DNA from: Jimgerdemannia flammicorona
Lineage: Eukaryota
Assembly: GCA_003990765.1 (NCBI GenBank)
Contig: RBNJ01000229.1
Coordinates: 1-36,153, forward strand
DNA: 36,153 nt
Reading direction: 5' to 3'
Part shown: positions 1-24,686 of the stretch, in pieces
Layout of the letters: every line of letters begins with the position of its first letter
How positions within the stretch are numbered: the stretch's first letter is position 1
Translations under genes and position numbers: made by a program
Notes under the pieces: generated by a model
The model's input: only the letters and a program-made list of their open reading frames with translations
Told to the model about the DNA's origin: nothing
Databases searched by the model: none

Positions 1-1560
1 CCAAAACCCTCCCCCACCACCCACCGAACAATATCCCCCCATTAACCTAGGCTACTAAATTGTCCAGCAGTCCCACCGCTCCAGCTATGCCTGTCGAACA
101 CTGGCTACATCGACCCCAATGACATAGACTAGACTTGTCTGCTCACCAGGGCTGGATCATCGTTTACACGCGAGAGCACACCTATGCGTCGGATCTAGCA
201 GCGCCGGGACTGAATAAAGAATAGCCCCCCAAACCCCAAAAGAAAGCCCGAGGCAAAGAAAAAACCCCCCAACCAACCAACAGAGAGCAAAGTAGATTCA
301 AAGTGGGTGAGTAAAGGACTTACATGCAGCACCTCCCTCAAAGGACTTACACATGGGCTAGGGCCTGAAAAGACCCCACTTCCACTCCCCAAGCCTGCAG
401 GCCTCGATCACGTTGCTGTGTCAGCTCCTGGTTCCAGTTGGGTACTGCCAAATGAGGAAGGTCCCACTCCCCAAGCCTGCGGGCCTCGATCGCGTTGCCG
501 CGTCAGCTCCCGGTTCCAGTTGGGTATAGCCAGGACGCCGGCCCCTGCACCACCCCACCCCCCACCAGCCAATCGAAAGGCCCTACCGAAATATTGTCTG
601 CCCCAGCCCCGATGACCACCCCCAGCCTGGCACCCCACTGGTTCACCGTAATCGCCCTTCCTCCTATCTGTGATGGCCATCTCCCCTCCCATCCCGACAT
701 CACCTGAAAAGCAGTCACCTACGCCAGAACCACGCTCGCCGGGAAGCTCGCCAAAGCCAGAGGGCCTCACCACAGGCACCGAGGACCTGCAGGTAACCTA
801 CACTGAGCACTTGACGCCCAAGGTCGGCCGACTCCCTACGTAGTCCGAGATACACCGAGACAGCACCTTGTTGGCGACGGCAAAAGGAAGAAGGCACCGC
901 ACCAAAATGGATACACTCCAGACACAGCCGAAGACACTAGAAACTACGAAAAAGTGTAGAAGACACCGATCTGACACCGATAAAGGGGCAACTCATCACC
1001 ATTGCCCTCCTCCCACCATGCCCATGCAGGCACAGCAAACCAACCCGAGGTAGAGGGGGTAATAATAGGGGAAAGGGGACTCAGAAGGTCGCCTACCAAA
1101 CCTTGTGACCGGTAAGGTAGCGGAGAAAGGAGCGGTCGCCCCTACCCCTTCTCTATGAAAGACTACTTTGTCAAACACAATCCCCACCCTCCCACCACTC
1201 TGCTCACATATCTTCATCACTAAACCTCAATGTCTGCCCCCCTGAGGTCCCCAACCCACCCACCATCTGGTCAGCAGATCTCTCACCAGCTCCTCCCACC
1301 TTAACACCTTCTCATATAACCCCAACCGCTGCCCCTTCTCAAATACGAAAAGCCAATGTCCCACCAGTCCCACCCATACTGCTAATACCCATCCTAAAGC
1401 AGAATCAGAAGATAGAAGCAAAGTACCAGAGTAGAGTAGCAATGGAGATCTAAAGAGCAGTAATAAAAATAGAGAGCTAGAGAGCAGAAATAGAAATAGG
1501 AAACTGAAGTACAGAGATAGAAATAGGGAGTAGAGCAAAAATAGAAAAGAGAGAGCTGAG
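1..1560. mobile_element. Probable transposon/repeat-derived sequence, family unidentified
   Basis: No coherent spliced gene. C-rich then purine-rich low-complexity blocks, an internal direct repeat and short GACACCGA-type repeats (about 850-980). CpG declines towards the AT-rich block. No diagnostic domain recognised. Confidence 0.25.
382..526 (+). repeat. 63-bp direct repeat pair (382-444 and 464-526)
   Basis: CCACTCCCCAAGCCTGC...GGTTCCAGTTGGGTA occurs twice. Five differences, all CG (copy 2) versus CA or TG (copy 1). Confidence 0.9.
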
Positions 1561-2172
1561 AAGTAATGGGTTTCTTTGACAGGTGATAGAGCTTTTAATA
1601 TAATAAAAAATAATGATATAATATCAAATTAAATAAGCTTAAGTTTCTTAGAATAATTCAGAAATTATTCAGATAGTATATTATCTGATAGAGAATTTCT
1701 TAGCAAATGCATCATTCAAGATTTGACAGTCTTTGTCTATCCCTTTGTCTGTAGATAATATTGTCTTTTAAAATTATTTAGCAGACAAATTAAAGTTTGA
1801 AAAAAATGATTTTTTGAAACATTGTTTTTCTGTTAAAAATATATCTCAATTTGTTTAAAAACAATTTTTTTTTTTAAAAACTATTATGATTTTAAAAGTT
1901 ATAAACTTTTAAAATCTTGTCTCTAAATTTAGGTGCAAAACAGTCAAAGGGATATACTGCCTATTCACTGCCCTTTATTGTCAATTTCCTAATGATCTTA
2001 TGATCTTTATCTTGTAGCTTATAGACTTATAGACTTACAGTATCCAAATTGAGGCCTTATGAAACAATTATCTAGTACAAGCATAAAGAGTGTTTAAAAT
2101 GGTTCTATGTAATACTACTATATTATAACAAACTCTCAATCTATATATCTCTCATACTTATATCAATGATAT

Positions 2173-2277
2173 AAGCAAATAAGTTCACTTACAAAAATAG
2201 TAAGCAAATAAGTTTATCTACAAAAGCAGTAAGTAGACAAGTTTTTTGTAAGCAAATAAGTTTACTTATAAAGCACT
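2173..2277 (+). repeat. Degenerate ~29-bp tandem repeat upstream of the piggyBac ORF
   Basis: AAGCAAATAAGTT-like units start at 2173, 2202, 2231 and 2250. Confidence 0.6.
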
Positions 2278-2399
2278 CAAGTTTCCCACCTCTATTACTA
2301 TACTTACCCCCCACTTCTACCACTATACCTACCTCTATATCTACTACCTCTATACTAGAAATTTATAAGAAAAAGTAGCAAAAGGAAACAAACTATTAT

Positions 2400-2629
2400 G
2401 ATCAAGATTCCATGCTGACCAGATCATATAACTACTAATGATAAGAGTAAAAATAAGATCATATCTGTTATTTTCACCATTCTTACCATAGATAATGAGA
2501 GTATAGATGATGGAGATATAGATGACAAGGATGGAGAATATGAGGATATAGATAATAAAAATGTAGAGAATAACAATGAGAATATAGATGATAATGATAA
2601 GTATATGAATAATGAGTTTATAGATAATG

Positions 2630-2661
<32 letters not shown>

Positions 2662-4305
2662 CCTTTATCTGACTTCTCTACTTTTATATACCTCAAATAT
2701 AAGAAACCTTTTTACTCAAATCCTACTCTCTTTAAGTATCTCAAATCTATTTTCTTCCATCTCTTCTTCTCTGATGAGATACTAAAAATAATTATTACCA
2801 ACATGAATTACTATACCATAATAAAGATAGAGAATCTTATAACTAGTAGAGAGTAGAAGATTTTAATAGTATCTAAACTCCTTATTTTCATTGTTATTTA
2901 TATTTATTTCAGTCTTTTTTGTACTAAAGGAAGCCTTGAGTAATAGTAGGATATAGATCTTCAGAAGTCAAAATATCACATTCTTAAGTATATATCTTTG
3001 TTTTATTTCTAACAAATCAAATAATTCCTTTACATTTTCTTATATAGTATATATAATGATAATTACTATATAGTGAAACTTGAGCTATTATTATCTTATA
3101 TTCCAAACAATATATCAACTAAGCTCTAATATATCTATCAATAAGATGATGATATAATTTATAAGCAGAAGCTTATATACTTACTATATAAAGTTTAAGC
3201 TAATCTCAAAGAGTTATAAGGTCTTCACATTATGTAATTATGATTATATATAGATATTTCTTCCAGATTCATATACTGCTAAAAGTAAGAAGATAGAGGA
3301 TGATGACAATAATAAGTTTGGTGTAATAGTATATATATACTATGATTTATCTAGTCAAACAATTATCTAAGACTTAGAGATTTAATATCTATATAGACAG
3401 ATACTTCTCTAGTATTCCACTATTCAAATATCTATAATAAAAAAGAATTAGAATATATGGAATGGTTAAAATAGATAGAACATAATTCCCAAAGAAACTC
3501 AAAATTAAATATAGCAAAGAGAAAGAGCTCAACTAGAATATATTATCAGAGGTGATCATTAATAATATTCTAGTATTACTATGGAAAGATATCTTTGCAG
3601 TCAAAATACTAACTATCATCTATGAATTATAAAGAGTAGAATGGAAAATTGAGTACAAATAACAATATCTAATAATAATCAAAGCTAATAAAACTCAAGT
3701 CCAAGTAACTTAGGGAAATAAATATTCTATAGATATTGATATTCTAAAGATTATTGATAATTACAACCATTACATAGGAGGGGTCAACATTACTAACCAA
3801 CTCTAAGCATATTACTATATATAAATTAAAGCTAAAAGAAATTAGTAACTGATATTCTTCTAGTTATTGGACATCACAGTTATTAATTTATATCTTATAT
3901 ATAAGATAGATAGGTCTAAGACTGACTACAAAACTACTTGACTTGACTTAACTTGGGGTCTTATAATACTAGTAGATGAGAAAGAAAAAGGAATAGAAAT
4001 AAGAAAGATATACAAGCATAGCCATAAAGAATAGATGCTGCTAAATCTCAAATATCCAAAGAATCCTTACATCATAAAAAATTTCTATAATTTAGATCTC
4101 TCTTGACTTCTTTCTAGCAACTATCTATCTACTATAAGAGACTGGTATGAGGCATACATATGGTATCAGTTACAAGTAAAGACTGACAAAATCACAATTA
4201 GTAAAAAGAACTCACCCTAAAGCAATATTATCTATCAAATATATATATAATATTATTCTTTATCTAAATCAAGAGTAAAACCATTTTGCAGAATATTATA
4301 CTTAG
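2400..4305 (+). mobile_element. piggyBac (PGBD/DDE_Tnp_1_7-type) transposase pseudogene, heavily C>T/G>A mutated
   Basis: Motifs in piggyBac order: acidic N-terminus; LFFSDEILKIIITNMNYY (~2760); F*QIK*FLYI for FxQIKRFLHI (~3005-3036); SINKMM for SIDEMM (~3134); IYIDRYFSSIPLF (~3387); LWKD (~3577); IDNYNHYIGGVNITNQL*AYY for DYNxxMGGVDxADQLR (~3750-3815); IFF*LLDITVINLY; degenerate Cys-rich tail to ~4300. Many stop codons. Ends are approximate and no TIRs were found. Confidence 0.9.
2626..2660 (+). repeat. (AAT)n microsatellite, probably a mutated poly-Asp tract in the transposase N-terminus
   Basis: About 11 AAT units following GAT/AAT codons in the acidic region. Confidence 0.8.
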
Positions 4306-4383
4306 AAAAAATAAATATGTTAATAGTTGGTAAGCAGGTAATATATAATACAATAAAGTAGAATCTTACTAATACTAATATTT

Positions 4384-4437
4384 ATCTATTCTAAATCTAT
4401 TCTAAATCTATTCTGAATCTATTCTAAATCTATTCCA
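4384..4437 (+). repeat. 11-bp tandem repeat (ATCTATTCTAA) x5
   Basis: Seen directly, just 3' of the piggyBac ORF. Confidence 0.85.
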
Positions 4438-5579
4438 GAGTACACCAGTCTTATCTAATCACAGACTTTACTTGGAGCCCCATTTCTTTTTCATCACTGA
4501 GGTGCTGATGACTATTAATCTTGCTGGAGTAATATTGAATATAACTAGATATATCATTACAGATAGCTATATATTTGTGAATAGTATATATATTTCATAT
4601 AGTTAATTCAAATCTAACAAGGTAGTGCTCTTTATTATAGTCTGAAAGAGATAGTTATTACTTGCTCTTCATCATAGTTGAAGATAGTTATTATACTTTT
4701 ATAGTAATAAAGTTCAATAGTAAATTATAATAATAAAATGTAGTTAGCTATTTATTGAAATTAATCTTTATAAATACTATTGATAATTTTGTAAATCTTA
4801 TCCTCATCATCTACTATAGGTATATTTAGTATAAGCCTCTTTGTTAAGATATATTTATGAGATAAAACTAGAGGATTTTTAAATAAAGCTAGTATTATAG
4901 TATAGATATCTGGTCTTGATTTGCCTTTCATCTTATCTTTTGATAGCTAAAGATGTAAGATTCTCTATAACTATTCTATATATATCTTATATAGAACTTT
5001 ATACTTATCCAATACTGCCACTGACAGCTTACTATTATATAGTTTATAATATAGTACTGAGATGAGAGCCTTAATATCTGAAATTGAGACAAATACTGAT
5101 GGTCTTTTTACCTTTAGTTTTTTAATAAAAAAAGCTGAGACAGATGTATTATACTTCTTTTTTATTATAAGTTATTGAAGATAGTAATATATATCTGTTG
5201 AGTATTGTTTAAAAAATAAATAAATAAATAAAAGACATTAAGACAATCTTTTAAATTATCTCTGAAAGTAATATAAAATCATTTTTATAATAAATCTGAG
5301 AGAAATAGAAATTTACATAGATTATATATCTCCTTTTATTACTCCAAATATATATATATTATTAATATGTACTAATCAATAATATCTCTTTTATTAACTA
5401 AAGATACTCTTCATAAATTTAGTAGTTCTTCTACTGATCTTTGAATAGATAATTCAAGCCTATCATACTTATCTCACTACAATAGGTATATTTGTCATTG
5501 TTTGATATTCTCAATCTCTTAGTAATATTGGTTTCACTTATATCTGGTATTAATGACTACTTTAGTGATTTATTTATCT

Positions 5580-6400
5580 TTTATAGCTTTTTAATCTCTA
5601 TGAATACTGTATAAAATATATAAATATTAGAGTGAAGTTTTAGATCATACATCAGTCCTTTAAAAATCAAGTCTTTTATTAATATGTACAGATATAGAAT
5701 TAGACTAAAAATAGTTCTATAGTCATAGAGATATCTTTAGTATATAGTATTCATCTTTTGTATCTCATTCTATAGTAGATTATAGATCAGTAAGACATAT
5801 AGTATGATGAATAGAGCCCAGATATTAGCTATAAATGAGATATAATCTAACTGATGACTATTAACTAATTCAGGTAATTTATATACAGATAAACTAAGTA
5901 CATATCAGTTATACTATATTATTTTTGATATACATATATTAACTGATATACCAAAGTTGCAAAGTATGATATATAAGTTTTCTATATTAGATTTATATAG
6001 CAAATTGTTATACTTGATATTATAGTGAGTAATCTTATTATTGTGTAAATATAATATTACATTAAGGAGCCCTTTGAAAATAATAAAGATAAGTTTTTAA
6101 AGATTGACCTCTTCTTTTATTTAATTGATAAGATCAGCCACTGGTCCTTCAGTATGCTCTATCTTGATTGATGTAAAATCTTTAATCAAATATACTTAAA
6201 AAGCTCATACAATATTGGAGTAATTAAGTTTAAGAAACAAGTTTGTCTTATTCAATCATAATGATGTCAAATAACATAGCATCTTCTTTGCTTAATATCT
6301 TAACTACACATATCTCTCTGTCTAATTAACTTCCTTCAAAAACTATACTATAACTTCTGACACTAAGTTTATTACTTAGTTTGACTTTTTCACCTATCAT
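5580..6400 (-). pseudogene. Ser/Thr protein kinase pseudogene, heavily C>T/G>A mutated; decayed coding-like sequence may continue to ~4450
   Basis: Minus strand from ATG 6400: LSVRSYSIVF (GxGxYG loop after G>A), CVVKIL (VAxK), LNYSNIV*AF (LxHPNIVR), YLHNNKITHYNIKYNNL (HxDIKxDNL, 6027-6001), ILCNFGIS (DFG, ~5958-5950), LPE, ANIWAL (ADIWAL, ~5829-5812), LL* (LPW), MYDLKLH (DPxxR). Subdomains are colinear with no intron in the domain. Confidence 0.88.
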
Positions 6401-6540
6401 CTTATCTTTTCAAAATTTAATCTGAATATTTTTAACAACCTAACTAATTATTATAAAATGAAAAACTGAAAAATGTATAAATTAAATAGTAATTAAAAGT
6501 AGTACAAAAAAGACAGATAAGAAAATACAAAAAATAAATA

Positions 6541-6543
<3 letters not shown>

Positions 6544-6582
<39 letters not shown>

Positions 6583-6606
6583 AAAAAAAAAAAAAAAAAA
6601 AAAAAA
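6544..6606 (+). repeat. Poly(A) tract (~63 nt, one T)
   Basis: Seen directly. Confidence 0.95.
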
Positions 6607-7053
6607 ACCCCAAAATATATAATACTCCTTTCTTAAAAAAAGTTTAAATTAAAGCAGTAATTTGGACAAAATTCTTGATGAACTAAAGTTAACTAAGTCT
6701 TAGCCAACCTTATTCAATCTTAGTTAAACCTGTTAGTTAAAACTTAGCTCATATCAACTGAAATCATTCTTAGGTTTAAGAATGTCTGTTCTTATTTTAC
6801 CTTAGCAAGCCTGCATACTGGGTCATCAGCTAAATACCTTCAGTCACGGCCAGAATAGTCGATATATGAGACTCACTTTGCGGCATTATGATGGTGGAAT
6901 ACATGCAAACGAGATACACATACACCACAATGCATCCAATTATATGAACCACGGACAACACTGAAGTCATTATCTCCCCTCTCCCCAAACAAGCACCCTT
7001 TGCACGTCCGAAACCTACTCAACGTGCAACTCTCCTGGTCGTCCTCTTCCCAT

Positions 7054-9047
7054 TTATTCTTTTCCTTGGGCCATGATCCTCTCGATCTCCTCAATGCTTC
7101 TGGGGACGGTGGTCAGGTTCTCGAACCCGTCCTCGGTGATGAGCACGTCGTCCTCGATGCGCACACCGCCCACGGAGCGGTATCGCGCTAGAACCTCGCG
7201 GTTGATGAAGCGCGCCGTGTCCGGGTCCGAGAGCACTGGATCGATCATGAAGTCGCAGAAGTAGATACCTGGGAGGGTGGGAGATTACACCGTGAACTAG
7301 AGATCCAATACCATGCAATGAAGAAACCCGCAATCCCAAAACCTACCGGGTTCGACCGTCACAACCATGCCCTTCTGTAGCGGCCGCCGCATGCGCAGGT
7401 ACCGGATACCCGGCTCCTGGATCCGCTCCACCCCCGCGGGGTAGCCGCCCACGTCGTGGACGTCCAGACCGAGGAGATGACCCTATTTGGATGAGCGGAT
7501 GAACGAGGAAATAGTAGAGGTGCGGGGCCCGATCAACACAGAATCACTCAGAGTTTACTGCAGCAAGTAATAATAAGATGACAATAGCGTGCCGCAAATG
7601 GTAGGGGACGAACATACCAGCCCGTGCGGAAAGAAGGCGGCGGTGACGTGGCTCTTGAGCAGCTCCTCCTCGTTGCCAACCAGGATGCCGGCCTTGACGA
7701 GGCCGCGAAGACCGACGAGCTCGGCCGTGCGGTGGACCCGCTCCCACTCCACGCCCGGCTTGATGATGGCGTAGCAGGCCTGCGGGAATTTGGTTTGTGG
7801 GCCGGAATCGACGATATGCATCAGGACCAGATATCGAGCAGCTCCCCTCCACCACGCCCAAACTAAAGAGACGTACTTAAATGACTTACATCCTGCATTT
7901 CCTCTACAATGTTGTAAATAACCCTAGCTTCCGCCGAGAACTTCCCCCCTGTTGGGTACGTCCTCGTAATGTCGCTTCCATAGCACATGAGCTCGGCACC
8001 CGCATCGACCAACAGCATCTGGTACGGGTTCTCTGCCTCCAACCACCTATTGTTCCGGTTATAATGCAGCGTGGCAGCGGCCTTCCCAGACGCGACGATG
8101 GGAGCATAGCACTGGAAGAACGCACCCCTCCTCGCACATTCGTACACAAACAGCGCGTGCATCTCGTACTCGTTCTGGCCCGGCCTGACCTCGCGCATCA
8201 GCCGCTCGTGCGCGTCAGACGAGATCCGGTTGATCCGCCGCAGCAGGTCGATCTCCCAGTCCTGCTTGGTGAGACGCGACTCAGCGAGGGCCGGGCGGAG
8301 GAAGGATATCTCGACTTGTGGCGAGGGAGTGAGAGATGAGATGGCCGGCAGGAGGACCGAGGTGTCAGTGATGTCGAGGGCGTGAATCGTGGTCGGACGG
8401 AGCGACTTTAAGACGCTCGGGAGCAGGGATTCGTAGTGTACCTCGTCGACGTCGTATTTGGCGAGGAGCTCGTCCGGGTTGTCAGGTTGGCCAATCCAGA
8501 CGATCGAGTCGGTGTCGACGGCTGGGACAAAGAGGAAGCTGCGGGAGGTGTTAAAGTCGTAGAGGAAGTGGAAGCCGGGCTCGTTGACGCCTGGTGGGGG
8601 AAGGAAAGGTGTTAAGAATCGGGGATGTTCGTGGCATCAAGCTTCGTGTCCTTGTTGATAAACGCTTGATGCTAACACTTGACAATTTGTTCATGACCAT
8701 GTGGTTCGATGCACACGCCTCTTTCCAAAACTCACCAGTCAGATAGAAGAAGTGACTCTCCTGCCTGAACGGCAATTCGACATCTGTGTCGTCGCGCATG
8801 TACAGCAGGTTGCCCCTAAGGTACACGACGCCCTCCGCAGCAGCGCCCATGTGGTGGACCATCTTCTGGACGTTGGTCTTGGTAGGGAGCCTGGTGTGCA
8901 CGCCATTGGTCTTGAGGCCTGTTTGAACGGGAAGGATGAGTTTGCGGGCTGGGAAGGGGACGGTTAGCATGGGTACATACTGGGACGAGCGTGAAGGGCG
9001 AGGGTGGCACCGCCGTGGGCGCTGTTGACGTTATCTCCGATGCACAT
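7054..9047 (-). CDS. pepP: Xaa-Pro aminopeptidase/prolidase, M24B family; 6 exons: 9047-8981, 8918-8736, 8590-7890, 7779-7618, 7482-7347, 7268-7054
   Basis: [59 protein letters not shown] and [12 protein letters not shown] (metal ligands intact). All introns GT-AG with consistent phase. The first exon is the least certain. Confidence 0.93.
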
Positions 9048-9829
9048 TGGAATGGGTGTCGACAACAAGAACAAAAAGAAGCAAAATAGCCAAAGTATGG
9101 GGACTTACACAAATGTAGTTTTTTCCACAATCACATGACACCTCTGATGACAAAAATCAGATCACATTGATACAGGTTGAGCACATGGATGCATGGATGG
9201 ACCCTGCGGACGGACCTCGTCACGTTGTAAATTCAAGATATTCGGGCTCTCTTTGAAGTCTAGGTTCTTACTCCTACTGATATTTCACCCCTTTGAGGAA
9301 CCCCGACCTCACAAATACAGTTTGCCCAGCTTCAATTCTTGGTAATGTTTCCCAGAAGCCACACACACGTATGTGAAATGGAAGATACCCACTGTTTCTT
9401 CGGGTTGCACTTTTTTTTTTTTTTTTTTTTCAAATTGTCTATTGGCAGGCGAAAGCCACTTGTTCAAAGTTCAAACAAACGGGCCCGAGTCACGGCAGCA
9501 ACCACCGTGTTGGCCTCTTTAACGAGGGCGTAAATAAACAATCGATGATACGAGGGGGTTGCGACGAATGGACCGGCAGTGACGTAGCTCTTGACTAGCT
9601 CGTAATTTGCCAAGAGTCCATATTTTTAATACCCTTTATAAGTAATATGTCTACATTGTAGCTCGCCTTCCCACGATGTTTTCGTTCGTCTCAAAGCCAC
9701 AAACACACCCCTAGAGCCGAGATTTTGCGCCCATTCGTTGGAGACTCATGGATATTCGGATATGGTGTCCTGTGAGTAATCAACACACGCTTATTACCAG
9801 GGCTCGTTCATAAACTCCACTTAGGCCGG

Positions 9830-10846
9830 TTTCATCCTCCAGAAACTGTGGTACTCGTCCCTGGAATGGAAGGACGAGATTGCCTGGCTGCCACCGGCTA
9901 TACGCCGCTACGAACGAAACCCAGTATCTCAACGGCGCCCTCAAGTGTCGAACAACTCCTTCACCGAGTACTCGTGGGATAACAAGGGCGGAGGCCTGCA
10001 CGTCTTCCTCTACCACCTCACCAAGAAAGACGAATTCAAGGTCAACGTCAAGGCATACTTTGATTTGTGCTGGACCCGCTCAGAAAATCCGCGCGGCCTT
10101 GGCTTTTATTTCTTCTGGGGCTCGCTCAGCTACGCTGCAAACGCCGCCTTCCTCATGCTCTGGCATTCCAAGGAGCTCGGACCCAACGACCCGTACGCCA
10201 AAAGCCTCAATACCTACGCTGTCCAATATCCTTGGCGACTGCGGAAGGTCGTGGGTCGTCGGGTTCGGCGAGAACTCGCCGCTACGACCATACCACAAGT
10301 CGTCCTACAACTCATATATCGACTACCCGCTGCGCGGACAGAATCAATCGATCGTCGGTGAAGATTTTTTGCATGGGTTGACGCTCAATAGGTTTATCTT
10401 GTATGGCGCTCTCGGGCCTGCCCAGAACGATTCTTACTATGACGATCGCTCCAATTACGAGTATACACTGAAGGTAGTTTTTATTATTATTTTGTACCAT
10501 TATTGCAATTCATTACTCTACGCGGCATTAGAGTCAACCAACGCCCATCCTCTCTCTCCCCACACAATAGTCACCCAAGACTACAACGCGGCCTTTACCG
10601 GCTCTGCTGATTGACTACTGCGGCAGCCAGAACTTCAAGCCCTTCACAGACTGCGGCCTGGACCTCGGTTGGTCACACCCTAACGCCTCCAAGCCGCCCT
10701 CGTGGCCCGCAAACGACTGCTACCACACCTGCAACAAGAACTACCAATTCCACCGCAACCGTGTCACGGGTACGAGCGCGGCGCACAGGACCGAACTGAC
10801 GGCAGAAGGCATACTATTTCATGAGCAATATGTATATTTGATTTAG
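9830..10846 (+). pseudogene. GH9 endoglucanase (cellulase) pseudogene, 5'-truncated and multiply frameshifted
   Basis: WYSS..WKDEIAW, LYAATNETQYL, YSWDNK, WGSLSYAANAAFL, ILGDCGRSWVVGFGENSPLRPYHKSS, LYGAL-GP..NDSYYDDRSNYEYT, DYNAAFTG, and a tail DCGLDLGWSHPNA..WPANDCYHTC. The motifs switch frame at about 9885, 9945, 10225, 10465 and 10605. Probable intron ~10474-10570. The N-terminal DAGD region is not found. Confidence 0.85.
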
Positions 10847-23198: not shown

Positions 23199-24686
23199 TC
23201 AACAACAAAACGAGGCGAACACACAAACATACCGAGCTTCTGGTAACGGCACAACATGTGACTGGGAATATTCGAGTAGCTGCCGACGCGTATAGAACTG
23301 GCTCCGATGCGACAAGGACGGAGGAACGGATGTGGCGCCATCCGCGAAAGAAAACCCGCTGCCGCTGCGTTCCGCTTCAACATCCCGCTGGTATTCGGCT
23401 ACGCGTTTTTTGACATACGACGCGGTCTTGTCGGAAGGGCTATCGCGCAGGTGTTTGTTGAAATGTGCGCGCACGTTCCCCGCCGACAGCGGGTAGAAAT
23501 GCCAGTCGGGATCGATCGCCTTCAACAGGTTCCCCAGTCGGACATCAACCTCACGCGCTTCAGGCCGTCGGGCTGGGTCGAGGTTCCAGCACGCGTTGAT
23601 GATCTCTTGGTACGCCGCTGGCGTGCCGGGGACTGGGTCCTCGCGCAGCCCGTCGCGTCGAAATAAGTCCCCTGCTGTTCCGCGTGGGGGCACGTGGCTC
23701 ACAAGCTGCCATAGGATGGTGCCTAGGCAGTATATGTCGGACTTTTGGGTGTATGGTGCGCGTGCGAAGCACTCGGGCGGGAGATAGGATAGTCGGCCGT
23801 AGCAACCGTCTTCGGGAGCGTGGGTGGTGGATTGGGCATTGGCTATGACTATGCCTAGCCCAATGTCGATGATCCCCAGCTGCATAGATTCTTCTCGCAC
23901 GAAGACTAGGTTGCCCGGATGAAAATCGCCATGCGCTAAGCCGAGTTCGTGGAGGAAAATGAGCTTCTCGCTGATCGAACAGGCCATTTTGTAAACTACG
24001 GACCAGGGCATGGCTTTGGCGGCATTGTTGTTTAGTCTTTGCTCAAGATTACCCCCTCCTGCGTACCGCGTAATAACTAAGTACTTTCCGGACTCCTCAT
24101 GCTTCGAAATTCCTATCAGTTTGAACCACCCGCTACGTGTGAACGTTCCTACACCCGTTACAATAAGTATGTTCAAGACAATCTGTATTCGGCATTGGGT
24201 AATATCGGAGAGCAAAACGGAAAGAAAGCATGAATAATCACTCCTTTTCCTAAGAACCAAGGGACCTGGACAACATTAAACTTCCACGAAAAAAAAAGCA
24301 AGGGGCTCGTTTCGACGCACCTCTTGCAACATGGATTTGTCAAATTCCTTGAGGGCGAAATCCTCTTCGACCAGCCGGGTGTTATCCTCATTCATGTATC
24401 GCAAACGACCCTTCCAAACGGTCGCAAACCCTCCCCGGCCGATCTGCTTCAATCCGCCGACGAACCTGACCAACGGGATCCAGACGAGGTACTCTTGCAA
24501 CATGGACAGTCCCAGCTCCGCCAGGTGGCCCGCAAGCTCGTCTTCGTACCGAAATTCCCGCTTCAGGTATCGGATCCAATTTTGCGCCGATTCGCTCAGT
24601 TCGTCGAACCGCTTCACCCGCGATAGCGCTTGTTGCAGCCGCGATTCTGACATCCTCGATTCGGGGAGCGGAGAGTTTGTTGACAT
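23199..24686 (-). CDS. Tyrosine-kinase-like (TKL) protein kinase; exons 24686-24321 and 24182-~23233/23199 (3' end uncertain)
   Basis: WIP...F..LKQIGRGGFATVWKG, FALKEF, YAGGGNL, HGDFHPGNLV, IIDIGLG, YGRLSYLPPE, YTQKSDIYCLG, CWNLDPARRP. A donor at 23232 with acceptor at 23173 would instead end the protein at ~23169. Confidence 0.88.

Follow-up and report, generated by a model that had tools for sequence, protein, structure and literature searches.

The mutation in a CpG-free, AT-rich island of 5.5 kb is real and one-directional. It has run to saturation at CpG and is also strong at CpA, with an outcome that at this one locus is RIP-like. The island lies in a 36,153-nt stretch of fungal DNA (the window). 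It holds relics of a piggyBac transposase and of a protein kinase (Table 1), and repeat-killing mutation of this kind is not described for the Endogone group in the literature searched.

Host placement and composition of the island

By protein comparison, the host is an Endogonales-related Mucoromycotina fungus and not a member of Dikarya. Its Bud6 shares 263 of 370 residues (71%) with that of Endogone sp. FLAS-F59071, and in a Bud6 tree, built from one gene and 12 rows of which one is Dikarya, the host is sister to Endogone sp. (support 99/98) within a Mucoromycotina group (83/91). The best named matches are all from Mucoromycota. An initial sequence-only reading had supposed a Mucoromycota-like host, which these results bear out. 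A Pezizomycotina host, in which the pattern would be ordinary RIP, does not apply, as Bud6 falls within Mucoromycotina and outside Dikarya. Genomes in the Endogone-like lineage are reported to be large (96-240 Mb) and rich in repeats (PMC7928374).

The same reading had described about 5.5 kb essentially without CpG, and indeed none occurs in the 5499 nt of the island, whereas 84.6 are predicted from base composition (Poisson P(0) = 1.7e-37). Elsewhere in the 36-kb window, the longest gap without CpG measures 190 nt. GC content per 500 nt is 0.22-0.29 in the island versus 0.52-0.57 in the flanks, and the shift at either border is spread over 100-200 nt. Outside the island the CpG observed/expected ratio (o/e) of the window is 1.04, with a value of 0.57 over positions 1-1349, and genes starting about 200 nt from the island keep a normal CpG content.

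Dinucleotide indices, which had been proposed for recognizing RIP here, gave a divided answer. The usual thresholds are a TpA/ApT of at least 0.89 and a (CpA+TpG)/(ApC+GpT) of at most 1.03. TpA/ApT passes in the island, at 1.09, but the substrate index just fails, at 1.035, i.e., there is no clear depletion. The composite index is +0.05 in the island versus -0.43 in the rest of the window, to be read against a cut-off of > 0 (PMC11105155).

Table 1. Features of the island and its flanks, with codon changes in the piggyBac relic; positions refer to the window
Feature	Position	Strand	Remarks
CpG-free AT-rich island	1348..6846	.	GC about 0.24-0.25; core about 1560-6800
Left-flank multicopy sequence	600..1133	.	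other copies occur in X1 and X2
piggyBac transposase relic, piece A	2551..3099	+	family HMM positions 20-198
piggyBac transposase relic, piece B	3101..3334	+	HMM 197-273, past frameshift 1
piggyBac transposase relic, piece C	3342..4082	+	HMM 275-511, past frameshift 2; Pfam PF13843, E 1.6e-11
Protein kinase relic	about 5746..6246	-	Pfam PF00069, E 1.7e-10; CAMK-like
A-run	6545..6607	+	about 63 nt, close to the right-hand end
Right edge of the island	6625..6846	-	within the 3' end of the adjacent aminopeptidase P transcript
CGA>TAA	3022, 3660	+	conserved piggyBac columns
CGY>TAY	3004, 3654, 3666	+	conserved piggyBac columns
CGA>TGA	3939	+	conserved piggyBac column
CAY>TAY	3031, 3621	+	conserved piggyBac columns
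ATG>ATA	2992, 3188, 3774	+	conserved piggyBac columns
TGG>TAG	2854, 2947, 3843	+	conserved piggyBac columns
GAY>AAY	3140, 3786, 3795	+	conserved piggyBac columns

Contents and borders of the island

The transposase relic contains a DDE_Tnp_1_7 domain (PF13843) and has 1435 library matches at E <= 1e-3, with 38% identity for the best of them. Although it is spread over three frames, it is colinear across positions 20-511 of the 581 in the family HMM, with only two frameshifts in 1.5 kb, and the colinearity of motifs noted earlier is thereby confirmed. Inverted repeats were sought in purine/pyrimidine coding, in which transitions do not show, and none was longer than 20, i.e., chance level. The terminal inverted repeats of the piggyBac element, with their TTAA duplication, have probably been erased.

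The kinase relic is identified by Pfam, one alignment to a solved structure and its motif codons; the nearest solved structures are CDPK1 and DAPK. Its catalytic motifs are altered from HRD to HYN (CAC TAT AAT), from DFG to NFG (AAC TTT GGT) and from DxW to NIW. A homologue search with the frame of this relic (P0241) gave none at E <= 1e-3 among 1156 candidates, and tblastn of the intact kinase at 23202-24275 against the island gave no match. Comparison of the island with the rest of the window by blastn and tblastx returned poly-A matches only and no second copy. A six-frame Pfam scan of positions 1-1400 and 4083-5602, with stops read as X, detected no family, and roughly half of the island has no assignment. 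The island is probably an accumulation of inactivated mobile or duplicated sequences in the nuclear genome, made up of the piggyBac relic, the kinase relic and unassigned sequence.

At about 25% GC, AT-rich DNA can look like that of fungal mitochondria or mollicutes, which raises the question of an artefact or foreign DNA, such as an assembly chimera, a mitochondrial insert or an AT-rich endobacterium. We give this explanation almost no weight. The piggyBac transposase and the kinase are both eukaryotic, and since most stops in the island are TAA or TAG, the frames would stay closed if TGA were read as Trp. Among the four sequencing runs, whose contigs cover small shares of the window, a spliced RNA contig of run X2 extends from 9009 to 6625 and so spans the right border (6625-7265), and 158 nt of the island (6371-6528) are matched exactly by an X1 contig. 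Contigs are lacking over most of the island, to which we attach no meaning.

Direction and context of the mutations

The direction of change was assessed at 101 conserved piggyBac columns (consensus >=60%). Of these, 51 have changed: 36 by G:C>A:T only, 2 by A:T>G:C only and 13 by neither. At columns with a consensus of >=80%, 20 of the 22 changes are GC>AT only, none is AT>GC only and 2 are other. The changes are thus almost only G:C>A:T transitions, as in canonical RIP. When 38 intact homologues were treated in the same way, leaving one out at a time, the 734 changed columns comprised 146 GC>AT-only, 91 AT>GC-only and 497 other. The relic differs from this control both in the share of GC>AT-only columns (36/51 versus 146/734, Fisher p = 1e-13) and in the ratio of the two directions (36:2 versus 146:91, p = 1.4e-5). 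The retained residues show the same bias. Those whose codons can do without G or C at positions 1-2 (F, I, K, N, Y) survive in 25/30 columns, as opposed to 16/60 for residues that require G or C (p = 3.6e-7).

Most of the codon changes named in the sequence-only reading recur at conserved piggyBac columns (Table 1). The exception is CAA>TAA, which is not seen because the sole conserved Gln column remains CAA (3798). Both strands are affected, as had been stated: the piggyBac relic lies on the plus strand, and the kinase relic carries like changes in invariant motifs on the minus strand. C>T changes are intermingled with G>A changes (23 runs versus 21.8 expected), and this run analysis revealed no strand-coherent tracts of the kind left by a single round of RIP.

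Context was examined at sites where the ancestral context is fixed by the codon, a test with small counts that covers 1.5 kb of the 5.5 kb. Transitions occurred at 8/12 CpA-type sites, compared with 2/21 CpC-type sites (p = 0.0012) and 4/92 A/T sites (p = 8e-7 versus CpA). Six of the ten conserved Arg codons now read TAT, TAA, TAC or TGA, which indicates CGN ancestors, as in host usage, where CGN makes up 141 of 206 Arg codons (0.68). The remaining four derive from AGA; two are still AGA and two are now AAA and ATA. An alternative outcome, in which transversions and indels would equal C>T in frequency and context bias would be absent, is contradicted by the overwhelming share of G:C>A:T transitions and by the context bias. 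A dinucleotide fit to the whole island, which assumes an ancestral composition, gave a CpC rate of about 1.0 and a CpA rate of 0.8-1.2, i.e., no separation; it disagrees with the codon test on CpC. C in CpC and CpT contexts has been lost too.

Comparison with intact DNA relatives is limited by divergence. The nearest, metagenome loci L024 and L029, are 56% identical over aligned codons, and against them transitions (241:65) and transversions (84:24) are equally asymmetric, the comparison being saturated and too diverged to decide. With the same over-diverged proxy, the transition fractions were 0.70 for CpG, 0.51 for CpA, 0.43 for CpT, 0.36 for CpC and 0.10 for A/T. A uniform-rate model did not fit: it predicted 49 surviving identical G/C sites relative to these loci, where 183 were observed.

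The total loss of CpG, combined with a CpC-type rate (2/21) equal to background, is also what would be left by passive decay, i.e., deamination of methylated CpG in a silenced element and long AT-biased neutral mutation without a dedicated non-CpG mutator. CpG depletion is common among relatives of the family in soil and root metagenomes (median o/e 0.60), and CpG methylation of transposable elements is reported from Rhizophagus irregularis (PMC8647823). We nevertheless regard passive decay as unlikely. It does not account for the excess of mutated CpA-type sites over CpC-type and A/T sites, and because fixed A/T sites have changed in any way in just 7/92 cases, the element is too young for drift to have halved its GC content. 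Non-coding DNA elsewhere in the window has a GC content of 0.38-0.45 and a CpG o/e of 0.9-1.6. Furthermore, simulated removal of CpG alone from host-like sequence resulted in a GC content of 0.46 and a CpA/TpG o/e of 1.61, as against 0.24 and 0.88 in the island. Given a host-like ancestor, CpG-only decay therefore cannot yield the island composition, and the island lacks the TpG/CpA excess that should match CpG loss under passive 5mCpG decay. The proposal that the loss goes beyond passive CpG decay stands on this simulation and on the Arg codons, which indicate a CGN-rich ancestor.

The assumption of a host-like ancestor bears on a further explanation, in which the element was AT-rich and CpG-poor on arrival, e.g., from an AT-rich Glomeromycotina-like genome, and then underwent ordinary decay. 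The closest named transposase is from Paraglomus brasilianum. Many relatives of the piggyBac family lie in AT-rich, CpG-poor DNA, with many loci at a GC content of 0.20-0.31, so part of the AT-richness of the island could be ancestral. As a full account, arrival in this state seems very unlikely. The 6/10 conserved Arg codons from CGN, with 4 from AGA, match host usage. Conserved residues (W, M, H, P, G, D and T) disappeared via GC>AT transitions, which places the loss after the coding sequence was functional. Among 80 related loci from soil and root metagenomes, the minimum CpG o/e is 0.13 and none is CpG-free.

Several features would fit RIP in the strict sense, i.e., burst-wise mutation of homology-recognized duplicates in premeiotic nuclei, performed in this case by an enzyme of the DNMT1/DIM-2 family and not by RID. 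Mutation is saturating, directional and context-biased, indels are few and the borders are sharp; a transposon and a gene relic as mutated content suit duplicated DNA; and the X1 and X2 copies of the left-flank repeat differ from the window mainly by transitions. On the other hand, the saturated context is CpG, not CpA, the RIP indices are marginal and strand-coherent tracts are absent. In Neurospora, RIP ranks CpA far above CpG. In favour of strict RIP, homology-induced C>T mutation in Neurospora is reportedly mediated by DIM-2 (10.1101/115501). Against it, PMC8647823 cites Venice et al. (2020) for the absence of RIP signatures in Gigaspora or Mucoromycotina species, and a kingdom-wide survey reports N. 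crassa-like RIP as confined to a few ascomycetes (PMC12543289). Overall, we find strict RIP rather doubtful.

A candidate mechanism and its relation to known systems

The explanation we favour, as a whole somewhat more likely than not, is a dead-repeat island shaped by directional C>T change through methyltransferase-linked mutagenesis in silenced chromatin. The element arrived with host-like, CGN-rich coding sequence and then underwent massive one-way G:C>A:T transitions on both strands, complete at CpG, reaching some two thirds of CpA/TpG sites and far less pronounced at the CpC-type and A/T sites examined. These transitions created the stop codons and drove GC from roughly 0.5 to 0.24. The mutagenesis may be tied to cytosine-5 methyltransferases and limited to repeats in silenced chromatin. 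CpG would be stripped by methylation followed by deamination, and a DIM-2/DNMT1-like enzyme would supply CpA-preferring C>T change, on the pattern of Dim2 in Zymoseptoria. RID, which probably plays no part, is reported only in Pezizomycotina, and DIM-2-like homologues are reported in Endogonales and Glomeromycota (PMC9963178).

We tentatively suggest that Endogonales own a RID-independent C>T mutator which acts at CpG and CpA, targets repeats or heterochromatin and builds RIP-style AT-rich islands, probably via DIM-2/DNMT1-like enzymes. If so, methyltransferase-driven mutational genome defence predates Dikarya or arose more than once. The island, as one locus, points to mutational silencing of transposons in the Endogone-like lineage, and it offers a concrete place for asking whether DIM-2-like enzymes outside Ascomycota are mutagenic.

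Among known systems, the RIP of Neurospora and other Pezizomycotina resembles the island in producing G:C>A:T transitions across a transposon on both strands, with new stop codons, in a sharp-bordered AT-rich island beside normal genes and with CpA>TpA favoured. It differs in that the host here belongs to Mucoromycotina, with RID reported only from Pezizomycotina (PMC9963178), that CpG is saturated and that the classical indices are marginal. The hypermutation of Basidiomycota, which reportedly has a TpCpG trinucleotide preference that cannot be scored in the island because no CpG remains, also involves C>T change in transposable elements outside Pezizomycotina with CpG as a main target. The reported Basidiomycota pattern is CpG-biased and RIP-like (Horns et al., 2012; PMC3318451), whereas the island is also heavily mutated at CpA and comes from another phylum.

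PMC11105155 places RIP in Dikarya and also proposes RIP-like activity outside that group, for Zoophthora radicans (Entomophthorales). That signal is a genome-wide composite index alone, given with caveats by its authors; the island offers directional evidence at the level of codons, though at one locus and in a different phylum. In R. irregularis (Glomeromycotina), from the sister subphylum, CpG methylation is reported as concentrated on transposable elements (PMC8647823). This 5mCpG predicts CpG decay, and the piggyBac relatives are CpG-poor, but the island goes well past CpG depletion. Dim2 of Z. tritici is reported to act as a mitotic mutator that promotes C>T change at CA in the methylated DNA of transposable elements (PMC8016269), and a DIM-2-type enzyme is reported in the order of the host (PMC9963178). 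CG is reported as not highly mutated in Z. tritici (PMC8016269), whereas the island, with 8/12 CpA-type sites changed, has lost every CpG; Dim2-type CpA mutation combined with CpG decay is a possible origin of this pattern.

A CpG-free island among ordinary fungal genes

GC content falls from 0.55-0.59 to 0.22-0.29 over about 1500-6850 and then returns to 0.56-0.61. The sequence-only reading had described some 5.5 kb essentially without CpG, and the counts agree: the island at 1348-6846 (5499 nt) has no CpG, against 84.6 predicted from base composition (Poisson P(0) = 1.7e-37), and the window's second-longest run without CpG measures 190 nt. Outside the island CpG o/e is 1.04 and TpA o/e 0.69, and non-coding DNA elsewhere in the window has a GC content of 0.38-0.45 and a CpG o/e of 0.9-1.6. 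A general drift towards AT or a general loss of CpG therefore does not account for the island. Island cytosine o/e by 3' neighbour is 0 (G), 0.88 (A), 0.92 (C) and 1.46 (T). Of the RIP (repeat-induced point mutation) indices, TpA/ApT in the island is 1.09, (CpA+TpG)/(ApC+GpT) is 1.035, and the composite index is +0.05, compared with -0.43 in the surroundings. The left transition zone (1347-1560, GC 0.35-0.48) is purine-rich, low-complexity sequence of agaaatag-like units without CpG.

The flanking genes are ordinary fungal ones (aminopeptidase P, GH9, Bud6, GH5, a TKL-type kinase, Hsp104). The top named Bud6 hits were Umbelopsis, Podila, Glomus and Mortierella, with Laccaria lower; the best of the unnamed hits falls into one 90% cluster with an Endogone sp. 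FLAS-F59071 protein, to which the Bud6 of the window is identical at 263 of 370 residues (71%). In a Bud6 tree of 12 rows, one of them Dikarya, the two are sisters (support 99/98) inside a Mucoromycotina group (83/91, one gene), which upholds the Mucoromycota-like host proposed earlier. GH9 is uncommon in Dikarya, and its presence would fit an early-diverging host.

The aminopeptidase P gene is matched by RNA contigs of two runs from one organism, one of 1344 nt without mismatch, and by contigs of two root metatranscriptomes with 0-5 mismatches. Its 3' end falls within CpG-free, AT-rich sequence, and because an RNA contig extends from the gene into the island to 6625, the right border does not stem from an assembly join; the probability that the island is an artefact is close to nil. 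The left flank (600-1133) is multicopy in sequencing runs X1 and X2; many contigs there are 85-95% similar. Window-to-contig differences over 600-9600 comprise C>T 46, G>A 32, T>C 13, A>G 11 and 10 transversions in X2 (n=112), and 21, 25, 16, 17 and 21, respectively, in X1 (n=100). Among the differences listed at 600-1100 (40 of 176 rows), 24 of 26 are transitions, at CpG (11), CpA (6), CpC (6) and CpT (1).

Dead genes within the island

A Pfam scan of the island in which stops were treated as X identified a piggyBac transposase domain and a protein kinase domain on opposite strands. An exhaustive HMMER search with the piggyBac relic returned 1435 proteins at E <= 1e-3 (best identity 38%), and a profile was built from the 38 hits of at least 450 aa among the 150 matches listed. 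The relic is colinear with this profile in three frames and therefore carries two frameshifts in 1.5 kb. No Pfam family matched in 1-1400 and 4083-5602, and a search for terminal inverted repeats of the transposon, including purine/pyrimidine coding, found none. An A-run just inside the right border may represent a retroposon-type tail. Some five repeats of an 11-nt unit occupy 4386-4435, and the short stretch 4406-4460 is matched by an X2 contig of very high abundance (depth 3133); there, all 5 listed differences are T/A in the window and C/G in the contig.

Features in and beside the CpG-free island
Feature	Position	Strand	Basis
Aminopeptidase P gene, M24 family	6625-9009	-	spliced RNA contigs
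Aminopeptidase P introns, GT..AG, n=5	7266-7343, 7482-7616, 7779-7888, 8590-8734, 8918-8979	-	spliced out in RNA contigs
GH9 open frame	9814-10611	+	glycoside hydrolase family 9, E 2.2e-11
piggyBac transposase domain	within island	+	PF13843, E 1.6e-11
Protein kinase domain	within island	-	PF00069, E 1.7e-10
piggyBac relic, HMM 20-198	2551-3117	+	38-homologue profile
piggyBac relic, HMM 197-273	3101-3334	+	38-homologue profile
piggyBac relic, HMM 275-511	3342-4082	+	38-homologue profile
Kinase relic (reading frame P0241)	5596-6447	-	nearest solved structures CDPK1 and DAPK, E 1e-8
A-run, ~63 nt, directly inside right border of island	6545-6607	+	

Direction and context of the mutations

Where at least 60% of the 38 homologues agree (101 columns), the piggyBac relic retains the consensus residue in 50 columns and has changed in 51. 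G:C>A:T transitions suffice to explain 36 of these changes, A:T>G:C transitions suffice for 2, and neither does for 13. At a consensus of at least 80%, 22 of 47 columns have changed (20, 0 and 2, respectively). As a control, every one of the 38 intact homologues was tested likewise against the others (leave-one-out), which gave 146, 91 and 497 among 734 changed columns, with a mean GC>AT-only fraction of 0.21 and a maximum of 0.60 (relic versus control, p = 1e-13). F, I, K, N and Y, which need no G/C at codon positions 1-2, are kept in 25 of 30 columns of the relic, as against 16 of 60 for G/C-requiring residues (p = 3.6e-7). Invariant motifs of the CAMK-like kinase relic are altered in the same manner: HRD reads CAC TAT AAT, DFG AAC TTT GGT, HPN TAC TCC AAT and DxW AAT ATC TGG. 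Directional G:C>A:T transitions hit both strands of the island, as the sequence-only reading had held from codon changes, and C>T and G>A are interspersed along the piggyBac relic.

Sequence context was examined at the small sample of sites where the codon determines the ancestral base together with the adjoining one. CpA-type sites (C1 of His and Gln, G2 of Trp and Cys, G3 of Met; n=12) show 8 transitions, 1 transversion and 3 kept bases, versus 2, 3 and 16 at CpC-type sites (C1 of Pro, G2 of Gly, G3 of Trp; n=21; Fisher p = 0.0012). Fixed A/T sites (n=92) were kept in 85 cases, with 4 transitions and 3 transversions. Estimated hits per site are ~1.1 for CpA, ~0.10 for CpC and ~0.044 for A/T transitions, and no fewer than 4.4-5.9 hits per CpG are required to lose all 85-370 ancestral CpGs. 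Mutation is saturated at CpG and its rate is high at CpA in this codon test; indels and transversions are few in the island.

Six of ten conserved Arg columns are now TAT, TAA, TAC or TGA (of the other four, two have remained AGA and two read AAA and ATA), and these six derive most simply from CGN. CGN makes up 141 of 206 Arg codons in the host's own genes, where GC3 is 0.65 versus 0.30 in the relic. The coding sequence of the element was therefore formerly host-like and contained CpG; that it was already AT-rich on arrival is highly improbable.

In simulations starting from host-like sequence of the window, CpG-only removal left a GC content of 0.46, CpA/TpG o/e of 1.61 and TpA o/e of 0.52, versus 0.24, 0.88 and 1.10 in the island. 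To reach the overall composition of the island, heavy non-CpG C>T is thus required, in line with the earlier claim of mutation beyond CpG loss. Purely passive CpG decay plus drift, which would account for the missing CpG, is accordingly a poor candidate. The best grid fit for the whole island was CpA 0.8-1.2, CpC ~1.0 and CpT 0.1-0.3, from which the CpA-over-CpC preference at conserved codons is absent. This disagreement stands, and its cause may lie either in the limited number of codon sites or in the ancestral composition that was assumed.

Relatives of the transposase and origin of the pattern

A metagenome scan for the piggyBac family gave 592 pattern matches, of which 322 were confirmed and the best 80 retained. 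None of these best 80 of 322 loci is CpG-free; their median GC is 0.37 (0.20-0.48) and median CpG o/e 0.60 (0.13-1.27). As judged from them, the family occurs widely in soil and root metagenomes, for the most part within AT-rich, CpG-poor DNA. Two loci, L028 and L064, have open frames of 708 and 540 aa at a CpG o/e of 0.13 and 0.14; therefore, apparently intact copies can be strongly CpG-depleted. The closest of the 80, L024 and L029, share only 56% identity with the relic across the codons that align. The comparison is asymmetric in transitions (241:65) and transversions (84:24) alike, and a uniform-rate model does not fit it. With these loci as proxy, transition fractions follow CpG 0.70 > CpA 0.51 > CpT 0.43 > CpC 0.36 >> A/T 0.10, which agrees in direction but is too saturated to carry weight. 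X1 contigs (depth 151) and contigs of the root metatranscriptome X4 match ~64-78 nt of the relic at 3354-3432 and run on into G+C-rich loose ends containing CpG; such contigs may come from expressed relatives of this transposase that have escaped mutation.

The mutated DNA, dead mobile or duplicated sequence, is limited to the island, and the adjacent genes keep normal CpG. Dim2 of Z. tritici promotes mitotic C>T at CA sites of transposable elements (PMC8016269), DIM-2 is reported to mediate homology-induced C>T in Neurospora (10.1101/115501), and transposable elements of R. irregularis carry CpG methylation (PMC8647823). The methyltransferase RID is reported only from Pezizomycotina, and DIM-2-like homologues from Endogonales and Glomeromycota (PMC9963178). 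From the mutation pattern and these findings we lean towards methyltransferase-linked mutagenesis of silenced repeat chromatin as the explanation. CpG deamination in such chromatin would remove CpG, and a DIM-2-like enzyme would supply the CpA component of C>T. Strict homology-triggered premeiotic RIP seems unlikely: Neurospora-like RIP is reported as confined to a few ascomycetes (PMC12543289), and Gigaspora and Mucoromycotina are described as without RIP signatures (Venice et al. 2020, as cited in PMC8647823). Literature searches on RIP in Mucoromycota, Endogonales or Jimgerdemannia and on RIP-like signatures in early-diverging fungi, excluding Venice 2020, Chang 2019 and Bewick 2019, turned up no account of such hypermutation in Endogonales. 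On the evidence of this one locus, the kind of hypermutation is already known and the lineage appears to be new.
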